Source: an uncultured Gammaproteobacteria bacterium
GTDB taxonomy: Bacteria > Cyanobacteriota > Vampirovibrionia > Gastranaerophilales > CAZEDP01
Assembly (NCBI GenBank): GCA_964511035.1
Contig: CAZEDP010000001.1
Span: 1 to 42,406, forward strand
DNA length: 42,406 nucleotides
Reading direction: 5' to 3'
The notes below the pieces were generated by a model that worked only from the letters and a program-made list of their open reading frames with translations, was not told the DNA's origin and searched no databases. Every line of letters begins with the position of its first letter. The first letter of the stretch is position 1. The translations under genes were made by a program, and so were the position numbers. Of the stretch, positions 1-14,936 are shown piece by piece.

Positions 1-1707
1 ATTACAGGCCAGTGCATTAAACCTCCGGTATGTCCTCCTGTAACGCCACCGGTATGTCCGACAATTGCAGCTAAAGAATACGGATATATGACAGGCGACC
101 CTCATTTCAGAGGTGGCGACGGCGAATTGTACACAATAAAAGGAATATCAGGCAAAGTATACAGTATAGTTAAAGACAAAAAATTTGAATACGATGCAAA
201 ATTTGAAACTGTTAACTGTTGGGGAAACACAGGCGCAACAGGTTCAGCAGTTAAAGTTGGCAATACCTGCGGAACTAAAACCAGCATAATTTATTATGAT
301 AAAAAAGGATGCGCTAAACTTGTAAATGTTGTCAGCGGTAAATTAACCGAAACAACAATTCAAAGAGGCGTTACATATACACTCGCAGACGGCGGAACAG
401 TTAAATTTGGTCAGGCTTACGGCGGCGGATGCGACGGAAGCCAACTTGAAGAAAGACTTATCATCAAATCAGCAGAAGGTTATACATTAACACAAGTTGC
501 AAGATCAGGCGGATATATTGACAGCAACTTCGAAACAAGCTGTAAAGGTGTATATAGTGACTGCGTAATGCCTACCGGTTTACTTGGTGATACATTTGAT
601 GCCGGCTCTGCAAAAAGAGTAGCAACAAATGACATGGGCGGCGGAATCTTAAACAGCAGCCTCTGTTCTTATACATTAGGTACTGACCTAAAGACAGCTA
701 TTATGAAAGGCGTAACAATTACACCGACTTGCCCGCCTGCTGATCCTCCGGTATGTCCTCCTGTAAATCCACCGGTATGCCCACCGCCTGTAACACCTCC
801 TGTATGCCCACCACCAGTAACTCCGCCTGTATGCCCACCACCAGTAACTCCGCCTGTTTGCCCACCACCAGTAACTCCGCCTGTTTGCACTCCCAAAATA
901 GCAGTTAACGAATACGGCTACATGACAGGCGATCCTCATTTCAGAGGTGGTGACGGTGAATTATATACTATTACCGGCACATCAGGAAAAGTTTACAGTA
1001 TTGTTAAAGACAAAAATTTTGAATTCGACGCAAAATTTGAAAAATTAAACTGCTGGGGAACCACAGGTACAACAGGTTCGGCAGTTAAAGTCAGCAGCAG
1101 CTGCGGAAAATATACAAGCATAATTTATTATGATAAAACCGGATGCGCCAAACTTGTAAACATAGTTAACGGCAAAAAATGCGAAATAACAATTCAACGC
1201 GGTAAAGTATATCAGCTTGCTGACGGCGGATGTGTCAAATTCGGTCAGGCTTACGGCGGTGGAGCCGACGGCAGTCAGCTTGAAGAAAGACTTATTATTA
1301 AATCAAAAGAAGGCTATACTTTAAGTCAAGTTGCAAGAGCCGGCGGATATATCGACAGCAACTTCGAAACAGGATGCAAAGGCGTTTACAGTGACGGCGT
1401 CATGACATCCGGCTTATTAGGTGACACATTTGATGCAGGTTCTGCAAAAAGAGTCGCAACAGATAATATGGGCACCGGAATTTTAAACAGTTCTCTTTGC
1501 TCATACACATTAGGCACTGATTTAAAAGCAGCTATAATGAAAAACGTAGCACTTACAACAGGTTGTGGACTTTCAACAAGCGAAATTAACGGAATCATTC
1601 AGTATATGAGCGCATTTGATGCTAATTCCTCCGCATACTGCCAGTCAATTCAAACATGCGGTTCGGGACAGAACTTTGTATCTCTGTTCACAGGTGCAAC
1701 AGCATAG
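1..1707 (+). CDS. 5'-truncated multi-module protein: tandem VWD-like (GDPH-motif) modules joined by Pro/Cys-rich linkers, with a C-terminal tail
   Basis: Frame 1 is open from nt 1 (ITGQCIKPPVCPPVTPPVCPTIAAKEYGYMTGDPHF...). The ATG at 88 is therefore internal, and the gene starts upstream of the window. Two near-identical 219-aa modules occupy nt 76-732 and 910-1566. Each opens with GDPHFRGGDGELYTI.G.SGKVYSIVKDK and has GLLGDTFD about 160 aa later. These resemble the opening (GDPHY.TFDG..Y.F.G...Y.L..D) and closing (GLCGNFDG..DF) signatures of von Willebrand factor type D domains. Stop at 1705-1707, followed by a terminator hairpin. Confidence 0.8.
   Translation: MTGQCIKPPVCPPVTPPVCPTIAAKEYGYMTGDPHFRGGDGELYTIKGISGKVYSIVKDKKFEYDAKFETVNCWGNTGATGSAVKVGNTCGTKTSIIYYDKKGCAKLVNVVSGKLTETTIQRGVTYTLADGGTVKFGQAYGGGCDGSQLEERLIIKSAEGYTLTQVARSGGYIDSNFETSCKGVYSDCVMPTGLLGDTFDAGSAKRVATNDMGGGILNSSLCSYTLGTDLKTAIMKGVTITPTCPPADPPVCPPVNPPVCPPPVTPPVCPPPVTPPVCPPPVTPPVCPPPVTPPVCTPKIAVNEYGYMTGDPHFRGGDGELYTITGTSGKVYSIVKDKNFEFDAKFEKLNCWGTTGTTGSAVKVSSSCGKYTSIIYYDKTGCAKLVNIVNGKKCEITIQRGKVYQLADGGCVKFGQAYGGGADGSQLEERLIIKSKEGYTLSQVARAGGYIDSNFETGCKGVYSDGVMTSGLLGDTFDAGSAKRVATDNMGTGILNSSLCSYTLGTDLKAAIMKNVALTTGCGLSTSEINGIIQYMSAFDANSSAYCQSIQTCGSGQNFVSLFTGATA
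76..1566 (+). repeat. Two 657-nt direct repeats (76-732 and 910-1566) encoding modules A and B of the same protein
   Basis: By-eye alignment shows identical length and most nucleotide and amino-acid positions conserved. Example: gaatacggatatatgacaggcgaccctcatttcagaggtggcgacggcgaattg versus gaatacggctacatgacaggcgatcctcatttcagaggtggtgacggtgaatta. Confidence 0.85.
778..885 (+). repeat. In-frame 27-nt tandem repeat (4 units) encoding (CPPPVTPPV)n in the inter-module linker
   Basis: Units at 805-831, 832-858 and 859-885 read tgcccaccaccagtaactccgcctgt(a/t) and are near-perfect. The unit at 778-804 is degenerate. The wider Pro/Cys linker spans about 727-893 (TCPPADPPVCPPVNPPVCPPPVTPPVC...). Confidence 0.9.
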
Positions 1708-1927: not shown

Positions 1928-3310
1928 ATGAGTTACGGTCAATCAGCAAGCAGTTATTTGTCAAAATATATGTCATCGAGGTTATTTGGTTCAAGCAGCA
2001 CAGTAAATCAATCAAACACAGCAATCGGAGGAACTAACGTAAATCAAAACAACGTTGCTTTATTAACCAATGCCTTCTCAATTAACAGCCCTACCAATGT
2101 CAATCAGTCAAACATCTCTTTGGGAGGAGGAAATGTTAATCAGAATAACATAGCAGTGGTTAACGGTGGTGTCAGTATAGGAAGCCCAACTAACATTGGA
2201 CAATCTAATATTGCTATTGGAGCCGGCAATACAAATCAAAACAACATTGCATTGGTAAACAACGGCTTTTCAATCGGAAGTCCAACAAATATCGGACAAT
2301 CAAATATTTCTTTGGGAGGAGTGAATACCAATCAAAACAACATTGCTCTGGTAAACAACGGCTTTTCTTTATGCAGTCCGACAGATATTAATCAGAACAA
2401 CACGGCAATAGGCGGATGCAATACCAATCAAAATAACATTGCAATAGTAAATACCTGCACACCTTGTATTCCTTGTCCGCCTCCGCCGCCATGCAAACCT
2501 CCTGTTGCGCCTTGCGAATGGGGTTCTGTAACAGGTGACCCGCACTTTAGAGGCGGTGACGGAGAATCATACAATATTTATGCAGACGGTGGAACCGTCT
2601 TCAGTATAGTAAAAGACAAAAACTTCGACTACAATGCAAAATTCAACTACTGGGGCAACAACAGCGTAAGCGAATCCTCCGTAAGAGTTAAGAACGCAAT
2701 GGGCAATAAAACCAGCATTGTATATTACAAAGCTAACGGAACTGCTACGCTGGTAAATATCAACAACGGAGTAAAAACCGAGACAACTATTCAGCAGGGA
2801 CAAACTTACAACCTTGCTGACGGAGGAACTGTCAAATTCGGTTCCATAAAAGTCAATCCTAGTTCTTCAACAACTGAAACCAGGCTTATTGTAACATCAA
2901 GTGAAGGTTACACCCTATCTCAAAGAGCATATGGCAGCCATATTAACAGCACCTTCGAAACGAGTTCTAAAGGTACGGAATCTGACGGCGTAGCAACCAG
3001 CGGTCTGTTAGGAGATACCTTCGATCCGGATTCGGCAAAGAGAATTCCTACTGACAACAAAGGAACAGGTGTATTAAATAAAGCTCTCTCCGCATATGCT
3101 TTGGGAACAGACATAACTGCCATAGCAATGCAGGGTGTTAACACTACTGCTCAAACCGGATATGGTATGGATACAACCGGTATAAACGGTTTGATACAGA
3201 ATATGGGCTCATACGGAACAAACACAGGAAGCAGCTTCGGTTCATTCTTTAATACAGGATCCGGGCTTCAGAATTATCTTACATCCCTGTATTCCGGATA
3301 TGCCGCATAG
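1928..3310 (+). CDS. Asn/Gln-rich curlin-like repeat protein fused through a Pro/Cys linker to one Cys-free VWD-like (GDPH) module plus a C-terminal tail
   Basis: Strong RBS aaggaggaaaggaaATG. No hydrophobic signal peptide (MSYGQSASSYLSKYMSSRLFGSSS). Five 28-32-aa N/Q repeats are followed by the linker TPCIPCPPPPPCKPPVAPC. Then comes GDPHFRGGDGESYNIY...SIVKDK...GLLGDTFD, homologous to the modules of the upstream gene. Confidence 0.85.
   Translation: MSYGQSASSYLSKYMSSRLFGSSSTVNQSNTAIGGTNVNQNNVALLTNAFSINSPTNVNQSNISLGGGNVNQNNIAVVNGGVSIGSPTNIGQSNIAIGAGNTNQNNIALVNNGFSIGSPTNIGQSNISLGGVNTNQNNIALVNNGFSLCSPTDINQNNTAIGGCNTNQNNIAIVNTCTPCIPCPPPPPCKPPVAPCEWGSVTGDPHFRGGDGESYNIYADGGTVFSIVKDKNFDYNAKFNYWGNNSVSESSVRVKNAMGNKTSIVYYKANGTATLVNINNGVKTETTIQQGQTYNLADGGTVKFGSIKVNPSSSTTETRLIVTSSEGYTLSQRAYGSHINSTFETSSKGTESDGVATSGLLGDTFDPDSAKRIPTDNKGTGVLNKALSAYALGTDITAIAMQGVNTTAQTGYGMDTTGINGLIQNMGSYGTNTGSSFGSFFNTGSGLQNYLTSLYSGYAA
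1997..2458 (+). repeat. Five consecutive about 96-nt coding repeats (32-aa units, consensus SPTNIGQSNIAIGGGNTNQNNIALVNNGFSIG)
   Basis: Units start at nt 1997, 2087, 2183, 2279 and 2375. Units 3 and 4 are nearly identical at protein level. Confidence 0.85.
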
Positions 3311-3540: not shown

Positions 3541-3771
3541 ATGATTAACAACGTTATGAATATTTTAAACAGAACTTTATACCCTCAAAAATACACACCG
3601 CATACACCTTTAAAAACAAATTATTCAAGCAATCCGTTTGCGGAACCTTTTCAAGGTTCTAACAATTATAATAACTATGCAAAAAATAACCCTGTACAGG
3701 GGGGCATATTTGCAGGGTATTATAATGGCAAATCCAATATAGTAGGCTCAAAACTTTTCATTGAAGCCTAA
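3541..3771 (+). CDS. Hypothetical small N/Y/G-rich protein (76 aa)
   Basis: ORF preceded by gaggaaaatatATG. Composition is biased (GSNNYNNYAKNNPVQGGIFAGYYNGKSN). Its stop codon overlaps the stop of the convergent kinase gene (cTAa at 3768-3771). No recognisable domain. Confidence 0.3.
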   Translation: MINNVMNILNRTLYPQKYTPHTPLKTNYSSNPFAEPFQGSNNYNNYAKNNPVQGGIFAGYYNGKSNIVGSKLFIEA

Positions 3772-4394
3772 CTTTCAATAGGCAAATGCATTAAGAAGGT
3801 GCTTCCAGCTCCTGTTTTGGTTTCTGCGGTTATGAAACCTTTATGCGCTTCTGTTATAGTCTTTGCTATCAGCAAGTTTCTGCCAAATTCAGAACAGTCA
3901 TGTTTTAATATCAATGCTTCATCAAACAAAAAATTCAGAGCTTCGGCATTAATCCCTTTGCCAAAGTCTCTGAACGATAATACAACGTGTTTTTCATTCT
4001 TATAGCTTTTGATGATAATTTCTCCATATTTTGGACTGTGATGAATTGCGTTGGTAATTATATTAGCCACAGCTTGCTGCATAAACCAGAAATTGAATTG
4101 TACATTAATATCTTCGACTCCGGATAAATTTATCTTTATATGCTTATCTTGACTGTTTTGAAGACATATTTGAACGGATAATTCAACCAATTTCTTGATT
4201 GAATTATTTTCAAACGATATTATCCCTCTACCACAGCTCTCTTTAATTTTGTTTAAATACAAAACAGTTCCCAGAAGTTTGTCATTGTTAATATCAGTGT
4301 GATTTGGAATCATCTCAATAAATTCGCATCTCCAAACATAATCCTGCACAAAAAAATAAATAAACATAAAGTTATGTTTATTTATAAAAGACAA
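3768..4394 (-). CDS. Short sensor-less histidine kinase (H-box region plus HATPase_c only), possibly a remnant
   Basis: N-box QAVANIITNAIHHSP, G1 RDFGKGI, F-box LFDE and a C-terminal GAGSTFLMHLP. Candidate H-box NHTDINNDKLLGTVLYL resembles the CitA/DcuS-type H.....N.L..I.G motif. There is no TM or sensor domain. The longest ORF starts at a TTG, so the start is uncertain. The upstream region is non-coding and AT-rich. Confidence 0.6.
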   Translation of the reverse strand: MSFINKHNFMFIYFFVQDYVWRCEFIEMIPNHTDINNDKLLGTVLYLNKIKESCGRGIISFENNSIKKLVELSVQICLQNSQDKHIKINLSGVEDINVQFNFWFMQQAVANIITNAIHHSPKYGEIIIKSYKNEKHVVLSFRDFGKGINAEALNFLFDEALILKHDCSEFGRNLLIAKTITEAHKGFITAETKTGAGSTFLMHLPIES

Positions 4395-7269: not shown

Positions 7270-8121
7270 TTAAACTATGTTTTCAATATATCCGGCACCA
7301 AAACCGTTTGTTGCATTGTCATAGTAATTTGCAATGAATACGGAATCCTCATACAGGTTATTTGCTTCAATAAACAACGAATCATAAAATCCGTTTTGAT
7401 CAACGTCCTGAGATTCTGTAGTATATCCGCCTGTCCAGCCGGTCAAATTCAAAGTATCACAACCGCTTGTATCGTAAATAGTATCGTGACCGGAACCGTC
7501 AAAGTAACCTGTATAGGTATCATCGCCGTCTCTGCCTTCAAGCCAATCGTTCCCTGCATTTCCAATTAAAGTATTATTACCGCTGTTTCCGCCGATATTG
7601 TTATTTAGGTCGTTTCCTGTTCCGTTCAGGTTGGCAGAACCTGTCAATGTTAAATCTTCAACATTTGAGGGAAGTGTATAACTTATTGAAGATAATACAT
7701 GATCATGTCCTTCTTCGGGATTTTCATGAACACCGTCAAGAGCAATATCAACATAATAAGTATCATCGCCGGCTTCGCCGTACATCATGTCCTTATTTGA
7801 TCCGCCGTCAAGAATATCATTCCCTTCTCCGCCATACAAAGTGTCGTCGCCTGCATCTCCAAGAAGCCAATCATTGCCGTTTTCACCCCAAATAATATCA
7901 TTTGAGTTACCGCCTCTCAGATAGTCATTACCGTCACCGCCCCAAATAAAATCATTGCCGTCACCACCGTTTGCACGGTCATTACCGGCTCCGCAGTAAA
8001 TCAAATCAGCTTTATCGCCGCCGACAATATAATCGTCACCGTCAAACCCTTTAATCTTATTGGTCTCACCCATAATTCCAAAGAGTGTGTCATCACCATT
8101 CGTTCCTAAAATAAGTGCCAT
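7270..8121 (-). CDS. RTX (hemolysin-type) calcium-binding repeat protein, probable T1SS substrate
   Basis: Consecutive GG.G.D nonapeptides (GGDGNDFIWGGDGNDYLRGGNSNDIIWGENGNDWLLGDAGDDTLYGGEGNDILDGG). No signal peptide. Strong RBS aaggaggaaagtATG. Confidence 0.9.
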   Translation of the reverse strand: MALILGTNGDDTLFGIMGETNKIKGFDGDDYIVGGDKADLIYCGAGNDRANGGDGNDFIWGGDGNDYLRGGNSNDIIWGENGNDWLLGDAGDDTLYGGEGNDILDGGSNKDMMYGEAGDDTYYVDIALDGVHENPEEGHDHVLSSISYTLPSNVEDLTLTGSANLNGTGNDLNNNIGGNSGNNTLIGNAGNDWLEGRDGDDTYTGYFDGSGHDTIYDTSGCDTLNLTGWTGGYTTESQDVDQNGFYDSLFIEANNLYEDSVFIANYYDNATNGFGAGYIENIV

Positions 8122-8287
8122 ACTTTCCTCCTTTTGCCTTTCTTAATTTAAATAACCAACAAACAACTATTATTTATATAGTTATATACATGTTTGTTGT
8201 ATTTTATACTGAAAAAATCAATTTCTATATCACTAATAGAGTAAAATATTGTTATTAAAACTTGATTTATTTGTTGTATATTAATTC

Positions 8288-8323
8288 AAAATACTATTCT
8301 AATAAATTATCAGAATAGTATTT
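8288..8323 (-). terminator. AT-rich hairpin downstream of the second RTX gene
   Basis: aaatactattct-(11-nt loop)-agaatagtattt, a 12-bp stem. On the minus strand it is followed by a T-rich stretch. Confidence 0.5.
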
Positions 8324-8353
8324 TTATATTTTAAATTATTTAAACAATATTTA

Positions 8354-9214
8354 CTAAACGGGATAAATTATGCATTCAATAAAACCCGCACCGTTTCCGG
8401 CTGCAATCGTGTCATCATAATAATTTTGAATGAAGACTGTATCCAACGACGTAAGGTTTTCAATAAACAAAGCATCAAGAAATCCGTTACCGTTACTGTC
8501 AACACCCGTTGTATCAACGCAATTAGACCATCCGCACAAGTCAAGTATGTCCAGGCAGCCGCCTGCATCCTTTATTGTGTCATGACCGGAACCGTCAAAA
8601 TAACCCTTATAAATATCATTGCCTAAACCTCCAATCAGCGTGTCATCACCGCAGTTACCGACCAGTTGGTTATTTCCGGTATTGCCTTTTATAATATTAT
8701 CCAGTTCATTTCCCGTTCCTCTTGTATCTTCTGTTCCGATAAGATTCAAATTCTCGACATGAGATGGGAGAACAAAACTGACTGTCGAATTTACTTCATC
8801 GATACCTTGATCGGCTAGCTCGATTACTTTATCTGTTTTGGTTTCGACATAATAGATATCATTTCCTGTCCCTCCTTCCATTCTATCGGCTCCGTCAAAA
8901 CCGTCCAAAATATCATTTCCGGACTCGCCTCGCAATATATCGTTGCCTGCACCGCCGTTTAGCACGTCATTGCCGCAACCTCCCCATAATATATCGTTAC
9001 CGTCTCCTCCGTAAAGTTTGTCATCGCCGTCTTCACCATAAATGAAGTCATTTCCGCAATCGCCGTAAATATAATCGTTACCTGTACCTCCATATAATAA
9101 ATCACCTGTACCTGATCCTTCAATGATGTCATTTCCACCAAGTCCATAAATTCTGTCACCAAATAGCGTACCAACAAGATGATCGTCGCCGTTTGTTCCA
9201 TAGATAATAACCAT
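8354..9214 (-). CDS. RTX calcium-binding repeat protein, paralogue of 7270-8121
   Basis: GTGNDYIYGDCGNDFIYGEDGDDKLYGGDGNDILWGGCGNDVLNGGAGNDILRGESGNDILDG. It shares the C-terminal blocks GYFDGSGHDTI.D and F(I)(A/Q)NYYD...GAG(Y/F)IE with the neighbour. RBS gaggaggagaacaATG. Confidence 0.9.
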   Translation of the reverse strand: MVIIYGTNGDDHLVGTLFGDRIYGLGGNDIIEGSGTGDLLYGGTGNDYIYGDCGNDFIYGEDGDDKLYGGDGNDILWGGCGNDVLNGGAGNDILRGESGNDILDGFDGADRMEGGTGNDIYYVETKTDKVIELADQGIDEVNSTVSFVLPSHVENLNLIGTEDTRGTGNELDNIIKGNTGNNQLVGNCGDDTLIGGLGNDIYKGYFDGSGHDTIKDAGGCLDILDLCGWSNCVDTTGVDSNGNGFLDALFIENLTSLDTVFIQNYYDDTIAAGNGAGFIECIIYPV

Positions 9215-9336
9215 TGTTCTCCTCCTCGTGACTTTTTCTTGTAAATAAATTATTCACATTTCAACGTAAATAATTTTAGTTCATAAATTTTATTTATACA
9301 TCGCTAATAGACTTATATCTGCATATAAAAATTGAT

Positions 9337-9365
9337 TTGCAAATATTTAGATTAACTTCTATTTA
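9337..9365 (+). promoter_or_regulatory. Candidate sigma70-type promoter (TTGCAA-N17-TATTTA) upstream of the TolC-like gene
   Basis: Sequence only. The same architecture recurs at 16757-16785 (aaaaWTTGATTTGC-N19-TATTTAAA). Confidence 0.25.
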
Positions 9366-9598
9366 AATTGTTTTTATATATTTTAAATAATTCCACCCAT
9401 CAAAAAGAATTCATATATGAAACCAAAAATTTAATACATCATTATTTAAAATGTTCATAAAAATTCAATTTGTTACAGTCCTGTAATAAATACTGTCTTA
9501 AATTAAAAATAAATATAAAATAGGTTAATGTAGGGATTGAAGAAATATTTACAAAACATCAGAATTGTAAGATGAGATTTTAATAAGGTCAAATATAA

Positions 9599-11086
9599 AT
9601 GAAAAAGCATCGGCAAAAATGTTTGTTATATAAGGCTGTAATTATTTTCACAGTATTTTTAGGAACTAATTGCACAGTTTTTTCTCAGGTACAAACCGAT
9701 GAGGCAAAGCCAAAATCGGATGAAAACATCCAACAAACCACAGATTTTATTCCCGCAGATTCAAATCAGTTTGCAGAAAATCAACTTGAAGCGCCTATAT
9801 TGTATTTAAAAAACCCAAATCCTGAAGAAGCTGTTGTGTTAAATCTTGAAACTATTATAGAGTTCCTGGAAGAACAAAATTTGGATATTAACCTTGCTCA
9901 ATCAAAAGTAAAACAGTCTAAAGACTATTACTGGGCTTCATATGCTCCGTTTTTACCTTCGTTTTCCGCACAGTTTTACGGGGAAAGAGTTCGCGGAAAG
10001 GACGTAATAATTTTAAACGAACCTGTTTCAACAGACAGAAATACTCTAAAGCCCGGATTGACCGGCGACTACAATTTCTCCCCGTCATTTAAACATGTCT
10101 TCAGAATAAAACTCATGAAAAGTCAGGTAAACAAATATAAAGACACTTATGACAGGACTTTTCAAACTGCACTTTACGATGCTGCCAAGCTCTACATAAA
10201 CTGGTACAAGAATTATATGGATATTGAGCAGGCAAAACAATCTTTGAAAGAAGCAGAAGAGCAACTCAAAGTTAATGAACTGAGGATGCAAAACGGTTTC
10301 GGGACTAGACTCGATGTTATGCAGTCTAAAGCCCTGCTTGCAGACAGAAAGAATGTTGTTTTAAATACAGAAAATCAAAAATCAGGTTCTGAAATCGATT
10401 TGATTACTTTATTAAACCTTCCGGTTATTTGCAAAATTCAGCCCGAAAAACTTTCCAATGAAGAAATCACATTTGATGAAAGTACTAAAGATATAAAAGA
10501 TCTTTTGAAAATTACCGAAACAAACAGAGCAGATGTAAAGGCGTTAAATGAAGAAATTAAAATGGCTAAATCTCAGCTGCTTTATTCGGTTGCAGATCTG
10601 GTACCGGATGTCCAGCTCAGATATACAGGTAAAAAAGTTGGTTCGTCAACCGGAGATTTAGACACCTATAAACAGGGTTCTTTATATATAAATCTTGATG
10701 TTCTCAAATATATGGGACTGGAGAAGTTTCAAAGCATTAAAGCTAACCGGGAAAAGATTACCGAAGCTGTGTTAAGCAAACAAAAAGCACTCAATGAAGC
10801 ATACAGCAAACTCTACAAAGTGCATAATGATTGCAGATATTACAAAGAGCAGCTTCAGGTTAATAAAGATAAACTGGCAGCAGCGGAAGAAGGATACAGG
10901 ATTGCTGATGCAAGGTACAAGGTGGGATTTGGCATAAACCTTGAAGTTATGCAATCCCTTACAGATTTGTCAAAAGCACGGCTGGAATATCAAAAATCCC
11001 TTTCTGACAGCAATACCGCTCAGATTGAACTTTTGTACCAACTGGGGATTTTAACTCCCGACAGAATCTTAGCCTCAGTAAAATAA
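9599..11086 (+). CDS. TolC-like outer-membrane efflux protein (T1SS outer-membrane factor)
   Basis: Signal peptide-like N-terminus (KAVIIFTVFLGTNCTVFSQ). Two-fold repeated coiled-coil-rich architecture with OEP-type blocks (LNLETIIEFLEEQNLDINLAQSKV... and NELRMQNGFGTRLDVMQSKALL; RYKVGFGINLEVMQSLTDL). Confidence 0.85.
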   Translation: MKKHRQKCLLYKAVIIFTVFLGTNCTVFSQVQTDEAKPKSDENIQQTTDFIPADSNQFAENQLEAPILYLKNPNPEEAVVLNLETIIEFLEEQNLDINLAQSKVKQSKDYYWASYAPFLPSFSAQFYGERVRGKDVIILNEPVSTDRNTLKPGLTGDYNFSPSFKHVFRIKLMKSQVNKYKDTYDRTFQTALYDAAKLYINWYKNYMDIEQAKQSLKEAEEQLKVNELRMQNGFGTRLDVMQSKALLADRKNVVLNTENQKSGSEIDLITLLNLPVICKIQPEKLSNEEITFDESTKDIKDLLKITETNRADVKALNEEIKMAKSQLLYSVADLVPDVQLRYTGKKVGSSTGDLDTYKQGSLYINLDVLKYMGLEKFQSIKANREKITEAVLSKQKALNEAYSKLYKVHNDCRYYKEQLQVNKDKLAAAEEGYRIADARYKVGFGINLEVMQSLTDLSKARLEYQKSLSDSNTAQIELLYQLGILTPDRILASVK

Positions 11087-11101
11087 TTTTTTAAAATACT
11101 G

Positions 11102-12382
11102 TCACTGCCTTGTTGAGGGTTCTTTAAACGCTTTTTCTACATTTTCTGAAATCGGCTCTGTAATGAAGCTAAGGATGTTTTTATCTCGTGTGATGAAATC
11201 AGCCATTACAGTCATACCGGATTTAATATAATGCCCATTACCTCGTCGGTTAGTAAGAAAAATTGTATCAGGTTTAACCCTGACCATATAATAGGGTCTG
11301 TTATTTTCATCGATCATAGTTGACGGAGAAACGGATAACACCTTTCCAGTCATTTTCCCGAATTGCTGATAGGGCAGGGCATCCATCCTTAATATAACTT
11401 TCTGGTCAGGTTTAATATAACTTAAATCCTTGTTACCGACTTTGATTTCAGCAACCAATCCGGCTCCTTCGGGTACTATCGTCATCAAAGTATCGCCCAT
11501 AGCAACTGTTTCACCCGGATTTCTAATAATTAAGTCATTAACATATCCGTTCGAAGGTGCAATAATACGCTGGCGTTTGGAGCTTAATCTGGCTTGTTGA
11601 ACCTGTGTAGCTATTTGAGCTATATCTCTTTGATGCCCCGAAAGCTTTTCAAGAATGTCCCTCTGATAACTCCCTGAAATTTTTCCAACAGCACGTTGAG
11701 ATTGGAGCAGTTCCATTTCTTTAGCTTTCAGTTCTTCAGAAGAAGAAGCTACAGTACCTCGCAAATCAATTACCCTTTGTTCATAATTTCTCAAATCTTT
11801 CTCTGATAATCCGCCTTGTTCGTATAAATTGTTATATGAACTCAATTGTTCTTCGCCTTTTTGAAGAAGATTTTGATTCTTTAATAATTCTTCTTTTACT
11901 TGCCCATATTCGTGTTTTAACCTTGTCATATTCATTTTTGCAGCTTCAATATCATTTTGATATTCATTTTGAGCTGCTCTTAGCCATGCTGAAGACACAC
12001 TTCCATCTGAGTATGCCTTTTTATTGGCATATGCCATTCTCAAGGCATTAGACTCCTGCATGAGTAAATTTAACTGTTGAGAGACACCTCTCTGTTCAAT
12101 AAGCGTCATCTCCGGATCAAGCTCAACCAGCACTTGTCCTTTTTTAACTTCCTGATCGGGCTTTACATACACTCTATAAACAATGCCGTTATAAGGCGAA
12201 GTAACTTTGTTCAGTCTTCCGTCAGGCATAATCTGTCCAACACCTGGGACAGCTTCATCCATTCTTCCGAACCATCCCCAGATTAATAAACCTGTAACAG
12301 TGATAAACAAGGCTAAAAGAAAAGAAAGTGAAATATAAAAACTTCTTGTTTTTTGAAATTGAGTTTGTCTTTCGTCAATCAT
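11102..12382 (-). CDS. HlyD-family membrane fusion protein (T1SS periplasmic adaptor)
   Basis: A single N-terminal TM (FYISLSFLLALFITVTGLLIWGWFG). Lipoyl-like hairpin (VTSPYNGIVYRVYVKPDQEVKKGQVLVELD ... IIAPSNGYVNDLIIRNPGETVAMGDTLMTIVP) flanking a long coiled coil. Confidence 0.9.
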   Translation of the reverse strand: MIDERQTQFQKTRSFYISLSFLLALFITVTGLLIWGWFGRMDEAVPGVGQIMPDGRLNKVTSPYNGIVYRVYVKPDQEVKKGQVLVELDPEMTLIEQRGVSQQLNLLMQESNALRMAYANKKAYSDGSVSSAWLRAAQNEYQNDIEAAKMNMTRLKHEYGQVKEELLKNQNLLQKGEEQLSSYNNLYEQGGLSEKDLRNYEQRVIDLRGTVASSSEELKAKEMELLQSQRAVGKISGSYQRDILEKLSGHQRDIAQIATQVQQARLSSKRQRIIAPSNGYVNDLIIRNPGETVAMGDTLMTIVPEGAGLVAEIKVGNKDLSYIKPDQKVILRMDALPYQQFGKMTGKVLSVSPSTMIDENNRPYYMVRVKPDTIFLTNRRGNGHYIKSGMTVMADFITRDKNILSFITEPISENVEKAFKEPSTRQ

Positions 12383-12425
12383 TATAATAATTCCTCAAGT
12401 ATCCGTTATTTGTACATTTTAGAAT

Positions 12426-14936
12426 TTACTTATAAACCCCCTGCTGAATGCTGTAAAGATGATAATAATAACCCTTTGATGAAATCAAGTCCGAGTATTT
12501 ACCTTCTTCTGCAACAAATCCTTCATTCAATACAACAATTCTATCTGACCATTGATGTGCAGGCAAAAAGTCCGTCACAAATATGCAGGTTTTATGCTTG
12601 TACCTTTCCAATAAATACTTAAATATTGACATTTGTTCGTTAAAATCAAGAGTATTTAAAGTTTCATCAATAATTAAAATATCGGGATTTGTTATCAGAA
12701 CTCTGGCTAAGGCTATTTTTGCAGCTTGACCTCCTGAAATATTAAGTCCCCCCGAAATCAAATTAGTATTAAGTCCGTTTGGAAGTTTTGAAATAAAGCT
12801 GTCAAGTTTTGCAAGAGAAACAGCATTTAAAAGATTTTCCATTGATGAATCGGGAGTACTGAGCATAATATTTTCTTTAATCGTCCCCGAGAAAATAGCC
12901 GGACGCTGAATAACTGTTCCAACGGAATATCTGAGTAATTCATGATCAATTGTTTGTATATTATACCCGTCTATGGAAATTTCCCCCGATACAGGCTTAT
13001 ATAATCCCTGAAGAAGCCTTATCAATGTGCTTTTACCGGAACCGCTTTTGCCTGTTAAAACAATCTTCTCACCTTGTTTGATACTGAGGTTTACGTTATT
13101 CAATATAAAATTAGAATCCTGAGAATAACGGAAATAAACATCCGAAAATTCTATATCTCCCTTTATGTTTCTCAGAAATATGCCTCTTCCTTCGTCTTCT
13201 GAAGGTAATGCAATTGTGTAAAGGTTCTTCAATTCCTGTCTTAGAGGCATAGTTTCCTGAAAAAGCTGGAAAGAGGTCAGCATTCTCTGAAAAGATCCGA
13301 TGAAATTCCTCCCCATCATACTTATAGCAAGATATACACCGTATGTAGTATGCCCCATAAGAACTTCGTAAGCACCGAAATATAATGTTGCAAGATAACC
13401 GAGGCTGCCCACCGTTCCCAGTAAATTGCCCCCTGAAATATTGCTGAATCTCGACATAAAATCTTTTTCAACGTATTCGTTAACATTTTTTCCGATGGAA
13501 TTCATCATAGTCCATTCAGCACTGACTGATTTAACGGTTTCTATATTAGATACCGCTTCCTGAAGCTTAATCTGGCTGTTTCGCTGATTCTTGCCCGACT
13601 GCATCAATCTGGCTTTTTGCATAGGCATAATAAAGAAGACTATCAATGCAATGGGAATAATAGGAGAAAGTGAAATAAAGGCAAGTTTTACATTTAACAT
13701 GAACAAAATTACAACCATAATAAGCGACAAACCAAGATCCAATGATGAAAGCAGTGTTGTGTATGCATACGCATAATTGATTTTTGAAATTTCCGCAAAT
13801 TTTTCAATGTGGTTTTTAATATCACCAGATACTGTATCCAGTGGCAGCGCAAAAATTCTCTTAAGAAAACTTTTGAAACTCAATTTATCTATGTTTTCGA
13901 GAAAATTCGCCAATACAAACGACCTGACAGATTTGACCGCTATATCAAATGTCAAAATCATAATCATACCGACAGACATAACATCCAGAGCCGAAATATT
14001 TTGTCGTCCGAATACTCGGTCAAATATGACGATATAAAATATCGGCATACCAAGAGCAAACAGCTGAATTAAGAAGGATGCTATTACCATTTGTAGCGTT
14101 ATATCAGCATTTCGTTTGTAAAGATTCATATACCAAAGGGTACTAAAGGGTTCTTCTTGTTCAACAACATCGCTTCTAGGTGCTCTTTCAATTTTTAAAA
14201 GATTAAGTTTTTCATTTGGTGAAACATCTTCAGGCAAAAATCTTTCGTTTGTTAACCCCTCAATCAGCGCATTTCCTTTTCTGCCGGTAATCCATATTAA
14301 CCCGCCGTCTTTGTTTTCAAGAACAAACGGAAAATTTGTATTTAACAGCTGTTTCCATTCAACTTTTCTGGAAACAGCTCTGAAATCTAAATCTTTAAGA
14401 AGACTTCTCAAATCTTCAAGACTTTCTATCGGACAGTTGTGATTTTTGTTCGGAAATTTGTAGTACTCAAAAAGCGCATCCAGAATATCAGATGGGTTAA
14501 ATGAACCGGAAAGTCCGGTTGATGTTGATTCAAAACCTTCATTATTTAGAAATGGGACTTTTTCTCTTTGATTATTTGTATTTCTGAGTTCATCAAGTTT
14601 ATTTAAATAAAAATCGTATGCTCTTTTTAAGTCCTCACGTTTCAAAACTTCATCCAACAGAATTTCAAAGATAACTGTTGCTTCTGATGCAAGATATTTA
14701 TAATCATCAACCGTAAAATCCCATAATTCGCCTTCGTTTATAAAAGAAACCGTGTAGTCTCCTTCGTCAGAAGGTTTAAGGATTCTAATCTTACCGGACT
14801 TAATAAAACAAATTCTGTCAGAAGCTCCTTCAAAGCCGCTAATTCTTTTACCCGGCGAAAATTTGAATTCCGTACTGTCCGAAAATAAATAGTCCGGACT
14901 GCCAACAGAAACATTTCTTAAACCATTATCCACCAT
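12426..14936 (-). CDS. T1SS ABC exporter: N-terminal cyclic-nucleotide-binding-like domain, degenerate C39-like domain, 6-TM domain and ATPase
   Basis: Walker A GKSGSGKST, Q-loop VIQRP, signature ISGGQAAKIALAR, Walker B ILIIDE. The N-terminus has a CAP-like pattern (FKFSPGKRISGFEGASDRICFIKSGKIRIL...FINEGELWDF...ASEATVIFEI). The following roughly 110 aa align to a C39 peptidase fold but lack the catalytic Cys and His, as in the HlyB C39-like domain. Confidence 0.9.
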   Translation of the reverse strand: MVDNGLRNVSVGSPDYLFSDSTEFKFSPGKRISGFEGASDRICFIKSGKIRILKPSDEGDYTVSFINEGELWDFTVDDYKYLASEATVIFEILLDEVLKREDLKRAYDFYLNKLDELRNTNNQREKVPFLNNEGFESTSTGLSGSFNPSDILDALFEYYKFPNKNHNCPIESLEDLRSLLKDLDFRAVSRKVEWKQLLNTNFPFVLENKDGGLIWITGRKGNALIEGLTNERFLPEDVSPNEKLNLLKIERAPRSDVVEQEEPFSTLWYMNLYKRNADITLQMVIASFLIQLFALGMPIFYIVIFDRVFGRQNISALDVMSVGMIMILTFDIAVKSVRSFVLANFLENIDKLSFKSFLKRIFALPLDTVSGDIKNHIEKFAEISKINYAYAYTTLLSSLDLGLSLIMVVILFMLNVKLAFISLSPIIPIALIVFFIMPMQKARLMQSGKNQRNSQIKLQEAVSNIETVKSVSAEWTMMNSIGKNVNEYVEKDFMSRFSNISGGNLLGTVGSLGYLATLYFGAYEVLMGHTTYGVYLAISMMGRNFIGSFQRMLTSFQLFQETMPLRQELKNLYTIALPSEDEGRGIFLRNIKGDIEFSDVYFRYSQDSNFILNNVNLSIKQGEKIVLTGKSGSGKSTLIRLLQGLYKPVSGEISIDGYNIQTIDHELLRYSVGTVIQRPAIFSGTIKENIMLSTPDSSMENLLNAVSLAKLDSFISKLPNGLNTNLISGGLNISGGQAAKIALARVLITNPDILIIDETLNTLDFNEQMSIFKYLLERYKHKTCIFVTDFLPAHQWSDRIVVLNEGFVAEEGKYSDLISSKGYYYHLYSIQQGVYK

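Follow-up and report, generated by a model that had tools for sequence, protein, structure and literature searches.

The stretch of DNA analysed here (the window, 42,406 nucleotides from contig CAZEDP010000001.1) comes from a metagenome-assembled genome of 1.73 Mb, 73% complete, whose host is a non-photosynthetic relative of cyanobacteria (Vampirovibrionia, order Gastranaerophilales), and it opens inside a gene of contig C1. At this end lie two adjacent genes on the plus strand, and the subject of this study is the tetrapeptide GDPH, which occurs three times in their products and is considered here as a putative site of self-cleavage. The first open reading frame (ORF1, positions 1..1707) lacks its 5' end, since the contig starts inside it, and encodes a two-module protein. 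The end of a short N-terminal repeat region and a first Pro/Cys linker (ITGQCIKPPVCPPVTPPVCP) take up 1..60; module A, with a conserved lead-in strand, the GDPH and a beta-sandwich of predicted von Willebrand type D (VWD) fold, follows at 61..720; a long Pro/Cys linker of the form (CPPPVTPPV)n lies at 721..894; module B, for which the AlphaFold2 model was made, at 895..1563; and a C-terminal tail of about 47 amino acids (aa) past the last module, which might act as a non-Sec export signal, at 1564..1707. The second (ORF2, 1928..3310, 460 aa) encodes Asn/Gln-rich repeats, a Pro/Cys linker, a single predicted VWD-fold module and a C-terminal tail; this module C (2495..3160) is nearly Cys-free and shares 57% identity with module B.

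Six-frame translation bears out the motif positions given by an earlier sequence-only reading of this DNA: the GDPH codons are at 94-105 (module A) and 928-939 (module B) in frame 1 and at 2534-2545 (module C, G203-D204-P205-H206 of ORF2) in frame 2, the predicted scissile Asp-Pro bond of module A lying between nucleotides 99 and 100. The peptides flanking the three motifs are ...CPTIAAKEYGYMTGDPHF, ...CTPKIAVNEYGYMTGDPHF and ...APCEWGSVTGDPHF. The same reading had put each motif 10-15 residues after a Pro/Cys linker, which agrees with the 10-13 residues found; counted from the last linker Cys the distances are 12, 13 and 6 residues for the three copies in order, and all three share in alignment a lead-in of 10-13 residues, [PK]-[VI]-A-[AVP]-[NKC]-E-x-G-x-x-T. 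Being paralogues, the three copies are not independent events, so that their agreement says little alone, and conservation among homologues is the meaningful test. Three further module copies of about 190-210 aa each occur in the genome, two on contig C34 and one on contig C44, with GDPH at the same aligned place and, upstream, short repeats rich in Asn, Gln and Glu and a linker rich in Pro/Cys or in Pro/Lys/Glu. The linker at positions 1-60 had been taken earlier to imply one more module upstream of the window. The orthologue P0002 (607 aa, 96% identical to ORF1) has two modules only, with about 55 N-terminal residues of short Asn/Gln-rich repeats ahead of the first linker; since this full-length protein is so built, ORF1 lacks just about 55 residues and has two modules in total, and a third module upstream is ruled out. 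The locus of P0002 (L008, CAZXPD010000003.1), in a genome of the same genus, shares synteny with the window, at a nucleotide identity of about 83%.

Sequence searches with the window proteins gave no match in Pfam or NCBIfam at E<=1, and a single module searched against PDB sequences gave nothing meaningful. The fold was approached through modelling. A first AlphaFold2 model built from six paralogous sequences was unusable (predicted local distance difference test, pLDDT, 44) and was replaced by one based on a 53-sequence alignment (A4), whose members came from the window, from the rest of its genome, from related loci and from homologues in the databases. With this alignment, module B was modelled as an all-beta sandwich with pLDDT 92.7 and a predicted template modelling (TM) score of 0.91. 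When the model was compared with the PDB by Foldseek, the top 27 matches were all VWD-domain proteins (MUC5AC, MUC5B, MUC2, VWF and FCGBP) and nothing else was credible; the probability was 1.00, the E-value went down to 4.9e-7 (MUC5AC 9gvj, TM 0.52) and the query TM score was 0.52-0.55. Because the model matches only VWD proteins in the PDB, the module is classed, on the strength of the predicted structure, as a bacterial VWD-fold domain. The family profile (built as described below) also matched FCGBP (8rde) at E 5.4e-21 when searched against the PDB, aligned on five GDPHYxTFDG sites, and gave weak matches to MUC5B, MUC5AC and MUC2. C8 and TIL families were found in no Pfam scan of the window proteins or of 114 homologues, so that the modules do not form a VWD-C8-TIL-E assembly.

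The position of the motif in this model is that of the eukaryotic cleavage sites. By DSSP, strand 1 of module B covers residues 12-15 (GYMT), the turn T16-G17-D18-P19 and strand 2 residues 20-22 (HFR); GDPH (G17-H20; 928..939) thus sits between strands 1 and 2, in agreement with the GDPH/GDxH-xxxDG turn of VWD domains. The FCGBP motif has likewise been placed between strands 1 and 2, and strand 1 is part of the peptide that cleavage removes (Yeshaya et al., PMC10880436). The fold, the profile match to FCGBP and the place in this turn together uphold the proposal that GDPH here is a homologue of the VWD autocleavage site. The special placement that had been seen at each junction of linker and module does not stand in the same way. 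The 10-13 residues ahead of GDPH are conserved throughout the family, with A8 and E11 nearly invariant, and they are part of the domain and not of the linker; the Pfam VWD model, too, starts at its positions 2-3 on homologues, right at the motif (GDPH at about positions 2-5 of the model). The closeness of GDPH to the linker is therefore a property of every VWD domain and follows from the fold.

For the family as a whole, a word-indexed homologue search yielded just 5 and 16 proteins, and an exhaustive HMMER search with the alignment of six modules was used instead on representatives of 50%-identity clusters: 531 of these matched at E<=1e-3, 280 of them also at E<=1e-10. The family spans Cyanobacteriota, Myxococcota, Alpha- and Gammaproteobacteria, the other carriers including Myxococcota, Paracoccus, Thiofilum, Bosea and other Hyphomicrobiales, and has the N-terminal consensus P-V-A-A-N-E-x-G-x-I-W-G-D-P-H-F-x-G-G-D-G-G-K-Y-D-V-Q-G; two very long multi-VWD proteins were matched repeatedly, on WGDPHYTTFDG segments only. 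The Pfam scan of 114 members found VWD (PF00094) in 56 at E<0.01, several of them above the cut-off, and DUF1521 (PF07481) in 16. The motif was counted in 157 near-full-length domain copies from the 150 best cluster representatives: GDPH in 151, SDPH in two, GEPH in one and a degenerate form in three. Homologues thus do not frequently lack the Asp-Pro pair, which is retained in 153 of the 157 copies, and the earlier proposal of self-cleavage survives this comparison. GDPH is also invariant in the 53-sequence alignment, and among genomes of the same order, of which 16 out of 41 carry the family, it is found in 27 of 27 distinct copies. A chance occurrence of GDPH is ruled out by this conservation.

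Taking the fold, the position, the conservation and the experimentally characterised relatives together, we consider that GDPH is probably the autoproteolysis motif of a bacterial VWD-fold domain and that self-cleavage, predicted by homology and well supported by it, is the likely outcome. In another reading, rather unlikely in our view, GDPH would serve the VWD fold only as a structural turn or in a metal site, and the proteins would not be cut. G, D and H are indeed common at this place in non-cleaving VWD domains: PDB alignments of domains without GDPH give GDFH, GGAH or GDGH, among them the GDFH and GDGH of MUC5B and MUC5AC, and the window modules lack the assisting Gln that FCGBP has 14 residues after the Asp. 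An intact protein is harder to reconcile with Pro, the residue specific to cleavage, which is dispensable for the fold and yet present in about 97% of copies from Cyanobacteriota, Myxococcota, Alpha- and Gammaproteobacteria, or with the published GDPH cases that we considered, which in VWD or MIIA context are cleaved wherever examined. Because the VWD fold tolerates the loss of Pro and the bacterial family keeps it all the same, its retention argues for selection on the scissile bond itself. In FCGBP every GDPH-bearing VWD domain is cleaved (PMC8267560), and cleavage is blocked by D-to-A/N and H-to-N mutations (PMC10880436).

Autocleavage at this tetrapeptide is also not new to bacteria, as had been supposed for the window proteins from their sequence: it is already documented for the MIIA/DUF1521 domains of NopE1, NopE2 and VIC_001052, in which Ca2+ induces autocleavage at GD/PH (PMC6506597), and Asp-Pro self-cleavage is documented for FrpC-type RTX proteins (PMC7078468). 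The structure of MIIA was described as unknown in a 2019 paper. Our family seems to link the two domain kinds. In Paracoccus members DUF1521 (model positions 40-116) and VWD (model positions 2-128) match the same residues, and one of the homologous loci (L028) exceeds the gathering cut-offs of both. A NopE-like reference set was aligned from two-domain proteins of an 8-Mb Hyphomicrobiales genome, and hhalign compared it with the window family at 92.6% probability and E 4.6e-7, over just 61 columns around GDPH. On these sequence comparisons a link between Pfam VWD and DUF1521/MIIA through this family is probable, and no paper naming both DUF1521 and von Willebrand was found in the open literature searched. 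The window modules themselves are classed as VWD-fold relatives and not as MIIA members, because their charge differs and PF07481 has no match: their isoelectric points (pI) are 8.2, 8.4 and 6.2 (D+E about equal to K+R), as against 4.7-5.0 for the NopE-like domains, and PF07481 (gathering score 23.6 bits) finds nothing in the genome as a whole at E<=10, and nothing among the window proteins. Direct membership of DUF1521 is ruled out for them on this last ground. More distant copies in genomes of the same order (L070-L093) read WGDPHYHLKGEDGNDIKFDHKG and are closer to NopE-type DUF1521 (HGDPHVDANGDGKDDFDFKK) than the window modules are; judged by sequence, NopE-like and window-like flavours coexist in Gastranaerophilales.

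We propose the following course of events. The two adjacent genes would encode exported, Sec-independent proteins, each composed of Asn/Gln-rich repeats, a Pro/Cys linker, one or two VWD-fold modules and a short tail. In each module the lead-in [VI]-A-A-N-E-x-G-x-hydrophobic (10-13 residues) would form strand 1, G-D-P-H a tight turn, and strand 2 would come next. After folding, the Asp carboxylate would most likely attack its own backbone carbonyl, giving a cyclic anhydride and breaking the Asp-Pro bond, by the same chemistry as in FCGBP, MUC2, RGM and bacterial MIIA; the cleavage that we infer may be triggered by folding alone, by Ca2+ or by low pH. ORF2 would yield a piece of 20.7 kDa with the repeats, the linker and strand 1 (ending ...SVTGD) and one of 26.9 kDa (starting PHFRGG), and ORF1 an N-terminal piece, a piece of 28.9 kDa (a module with the linker and the following module's strand 1) and a C-terminal one of 26.9 kDa. 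Strand 1 would stay hydrogen-bonded in the sheet after the cut, and no conserved disulfide between the fragments is found in the family; it follows that the cleaved pieces would probably stay together non-covalently until pulled or denatured. For FCGBP, the fragments are held by a short strand pairing and one disulfide (PMC8267560). Release of unit pieces is a speculative outcome, and so is cross-linking, which we regard as a minority possibility.

The arrangement of the family proteins bears on what the anhydride would do. N-terminal to GDPH the cargo is highly variable (Asn/Gln repeats, collagen repeats, EF-hands, SdrD-B, extensin-like), the VWD-fold module being constant, and 68 of 151 proteins have the domain no more than 60 residues from their C-terminus. 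Both features suit a quite unlikely scheme in which a hydroxyl or amine, belonging to a surface glycan or to another protein, would capture the C-terminal Asp anhydride that the cut leaves on the repeat-plus-linker piece, the cargo being anchored or polymerised covalently in the manner of ITIH (inter-alpha-inhibitor heavy chains) esterified to chondroitin sulfate or of the FrpC Asp-Lys isopeptide. GDPH and Asp-Pro modules are already known to work by such chemistry (PMC8267560; PMC7078468, PMC7846742), and the VWD-like fold of ITIH has GDPH between strands 1 and 2 (PMC10880436). The FCGBP anhydride is buried, however, and merely hydrolysed instead of being used for linkage (PMC8267560); no acceptor is identifiable for the bacterial proteins, and more than 100 residues follow the domain in 53 of the 151. 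Its fullest form, a long shot, would make the VWD-fold module a bacterial clip-and-link device, with Sec-independent export, a cut at GD/PH and ligation of the cargo anhydride to a surface glycan or partner protein, that is, covalent anchoring or polymerisation independent of sortase, the pieces of two-module proteins being chained through strand-1 complementation. If true, the GDPH chemistry of mucins, RGM and ITIH would descend from a widespread bacterial module that includes the MIIA of NopE.

As to the cargo itself, the N-terminus of ORF2 (1997-2458), upstream of the module, is made of Asn/Gln-rich repeats of about 32 aa, NIGQSNIAIGxGNTNQNNIALVNNGFSIGSPT, and paralogues at L004 and L005 have (IEQENxAVQxGGGK)n repeats; these repeats look curlin-like, yet no Curlin_rpt match was found in Pfam. 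A Pseudomonadota metagenome-assembled genome (L042, 691-3378) encodes collagen triple-helix repeats, an EF-hand and a GDPH VWD-fold domain in one protein, and SdrD-B, extensin-like or PA-IL lectin domains are the N-terminal cargo of other members. There are 8 Cys in each ORF1 module (46-1563) as against 2 in the ORF2 module (2486-3160); with 103 of 157 domains of the family Cys-free, the Cys-rich state of the ORF1 modules is a lineage-specific outlier.

The neighbouring genes give two hints, neither of them decisive, on how such proteins would leave the cell. Judged crudely by hydrophobicity, no more than 2 of the 114 family proteins start with what looks like a signal peptide. The window genes have, 4-13 kb downstream, a cluster for type I secretion (7270..14936); it comprises two small paralogous RTX proteins on the minus strand (7270-8121 and 8354-9214), a TolC-like OEP (9599-11086), an HlyD (11102-12382) and an ABC exporter of 836 aa (12426-14936), and it is a candidate export route for the VWD-fold proteins, which have no signal peptide. 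Just past ORF2, on the minus strand (3768-4394), a 208-aa protein contains an HATPase_c domain only, a sensor-less histidine kinase fragment. In five Rhodobacterales homologues (L028, L029, L032, L036 and L039; Paracoccus and others) the gene adjoins, convergently, an flhB-like gene (Bac_export_2), with FliP, FliR and FHIPEP (flhA) genes nearby, a setting that suggests a link to type III or flagellar-type export, as for NopE. In nearly every genome of the order (G000, contigs C128, C40 and C41, and 40 relatives) there are two full-length FlhA/FHIPEP paralogues, at about 885 and 715 bits, and a third FlhA-type protein of about 495 aa that matches the cytoplasmic half only; family f3 is without the high-scoring FlhA copy and without the VWD-fold family (0/10).

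These settings could be accommodated by a more specific version of self-cleavage, which fixes its trigger and export route and which we hold as tentative: the protein would be unfolded in the cell, leave it by a type I channel or by a type III one of flagellar type, and fold and cut itself only on meeting extracellular Ca2+, as for NopE1 and VIC_001052. The scarcity of signal peptides, the flagellar-type genes beside the Rhodobacterales homologues and the type I system with its RTX proteins all speak for this version, and the conserved acidic residues E11, D25, D44 and D185 of the module could bind metal. It is at odds, on the other side, with the charge of the window modules, which are not acidic as MIIA is (pI 6.2-8.4), and with the missing PF07481 match; FlhA-type genes, moreover, occur in 41 of 41 genomes sampled from the order, with or without the VWD-fold family, and since every genome has them, their co-occurrence with it is uninformative.

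Some of our results weigh against predicted self-cleavage by a VWD-fold domain or against parts of it. The window proteins have no match to Pfam VWD (PF00094, gathering score 22.9 bits) at E<=1, and its best score in the genome, 16.5 bits, is that of the C44 paralogue. The position 14 residues after the Asp is occupied in FCGBP by Q4094, which assists cleavage and the mutation of which blocks it partly (PMC10880436); 85 of the 151 domains of the family also carry Gln at it, but in the window modules the residue is Thr, Lys or Tyr. The connection of VWD with DUF1521 runs through intermediates and 61 aligned columns, and the DUF1521 profile searched against the PDB found no VWD, giving spurious matches to designed beta-trefoils only. 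As the window modules are basic to neutral, the Ca2+-induced folding of MIIA may not apply to them, and, in proteins with no signal peptide, what points to the type I system is gene proximity alone.

In sum, the window proteins are an unannotated new member of an already known kind of autoprocessing domain, and for this genome the three striking motifs are explained as an ordinary consequence of domain homology. More generally, a bacterial family of more than 500 clusters (50% identity) keeps GDPH almost without exception and a signal peptide almost never, and it bridges eukaryotic VWD and bacterial MIIA/DUF1521, which are handled separately in the literature that we considered. If cleavage is confirmed, MIIA-type autocleavage would gain a structural frame, with GDPH in the turn between strands 1 and 2 of a VWD sandwich, and a bacterial origin of the mucin and RGM chemistry would be suggested; the compact, often Cys-free modules would also be available for tag removal or anhydride ligation, uses to which MIIA and the FrpC self-processing module (SPM) have already been put.

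Compared with known systems, the bacterial domains come nearest in fold to the eukaryotic GDPH-bearing VWD domains, namely those of FCGBP, MUC2 D4, MUC5AC, RGM/hemojuvelin, BMPER, MUC4 and SUSD2. They share with these the beta-sandwich (Foldseek probability 1.0, TM about 0.5) and GDPH[FY]xxxDGxxY[DT] at the turn between strands 1 and 2; towards its end the bacterial domain has a GLxGxxxD block that parallels the eukaryotic GLCGNFNG, and Gln 14 residues after the Asp, as in FCGBP, is common in the bacterial family. Unlike the eukaryotic domains, they occur in bacterial hosts without C8, TIL or E modules, without a signal peptide and without a conserved disulfide joining the two fragments (the majority of domains being Cys-free, as counted above), and the similarity of the window proteins in sequence is below the Pfam VWD threshold. 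ITIH folds as a VWD-like sandwich that places GDPH between its strands 1 and 2 (PMC10880436), and when it is cleaved, the C-terminal Asp of the cargo becomes activated and can form an ester with a glycan (PMC10880436, PMC8267560). A serum protein of eukaryotes, it is likened to the window modules from the literature alone.

The FrpC self-processing module is expected to differ from VWD in fold. The module of FrpC/ApxIVA, secreted by type I systems, cuts itself at Asp-Pro in a reaction that depends on Ca2+ and passes through an aspartic anhydride, and it may in addition form an isopeptide cross-link (PMC7078468). The likeness of the window modules to it is one of chemistry alone, taken from the literature, and FrpC-type modules are without the GDPH consensus; RTX proteins and a type I system stand near the window genes, and the window proteins themselves have no match to the RTX repeat (HemolysinCabind) in the Pfam scan. 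The MIIA domains (NopE1 and NopE2 of Bradyrhizobium, VIC_001052 of Vibrio coralliilyticus), for which autocleavage between Asp and Pro has been shown experimentally, measure about 170 aa, are strongly acidic and disordered without Ca2+, and have GDPH about 44 residues into the model, whereas the window module measures about 200 aa, is basic to neutral, is predicted to form a complete VWD sandwich and has GDPH 13 residues in. With MIIA the window modules share their bacterial host, an internal GDPH and an apparent independence of Sec, and the occurrence of two domains in one protein is known from MIIA as well.

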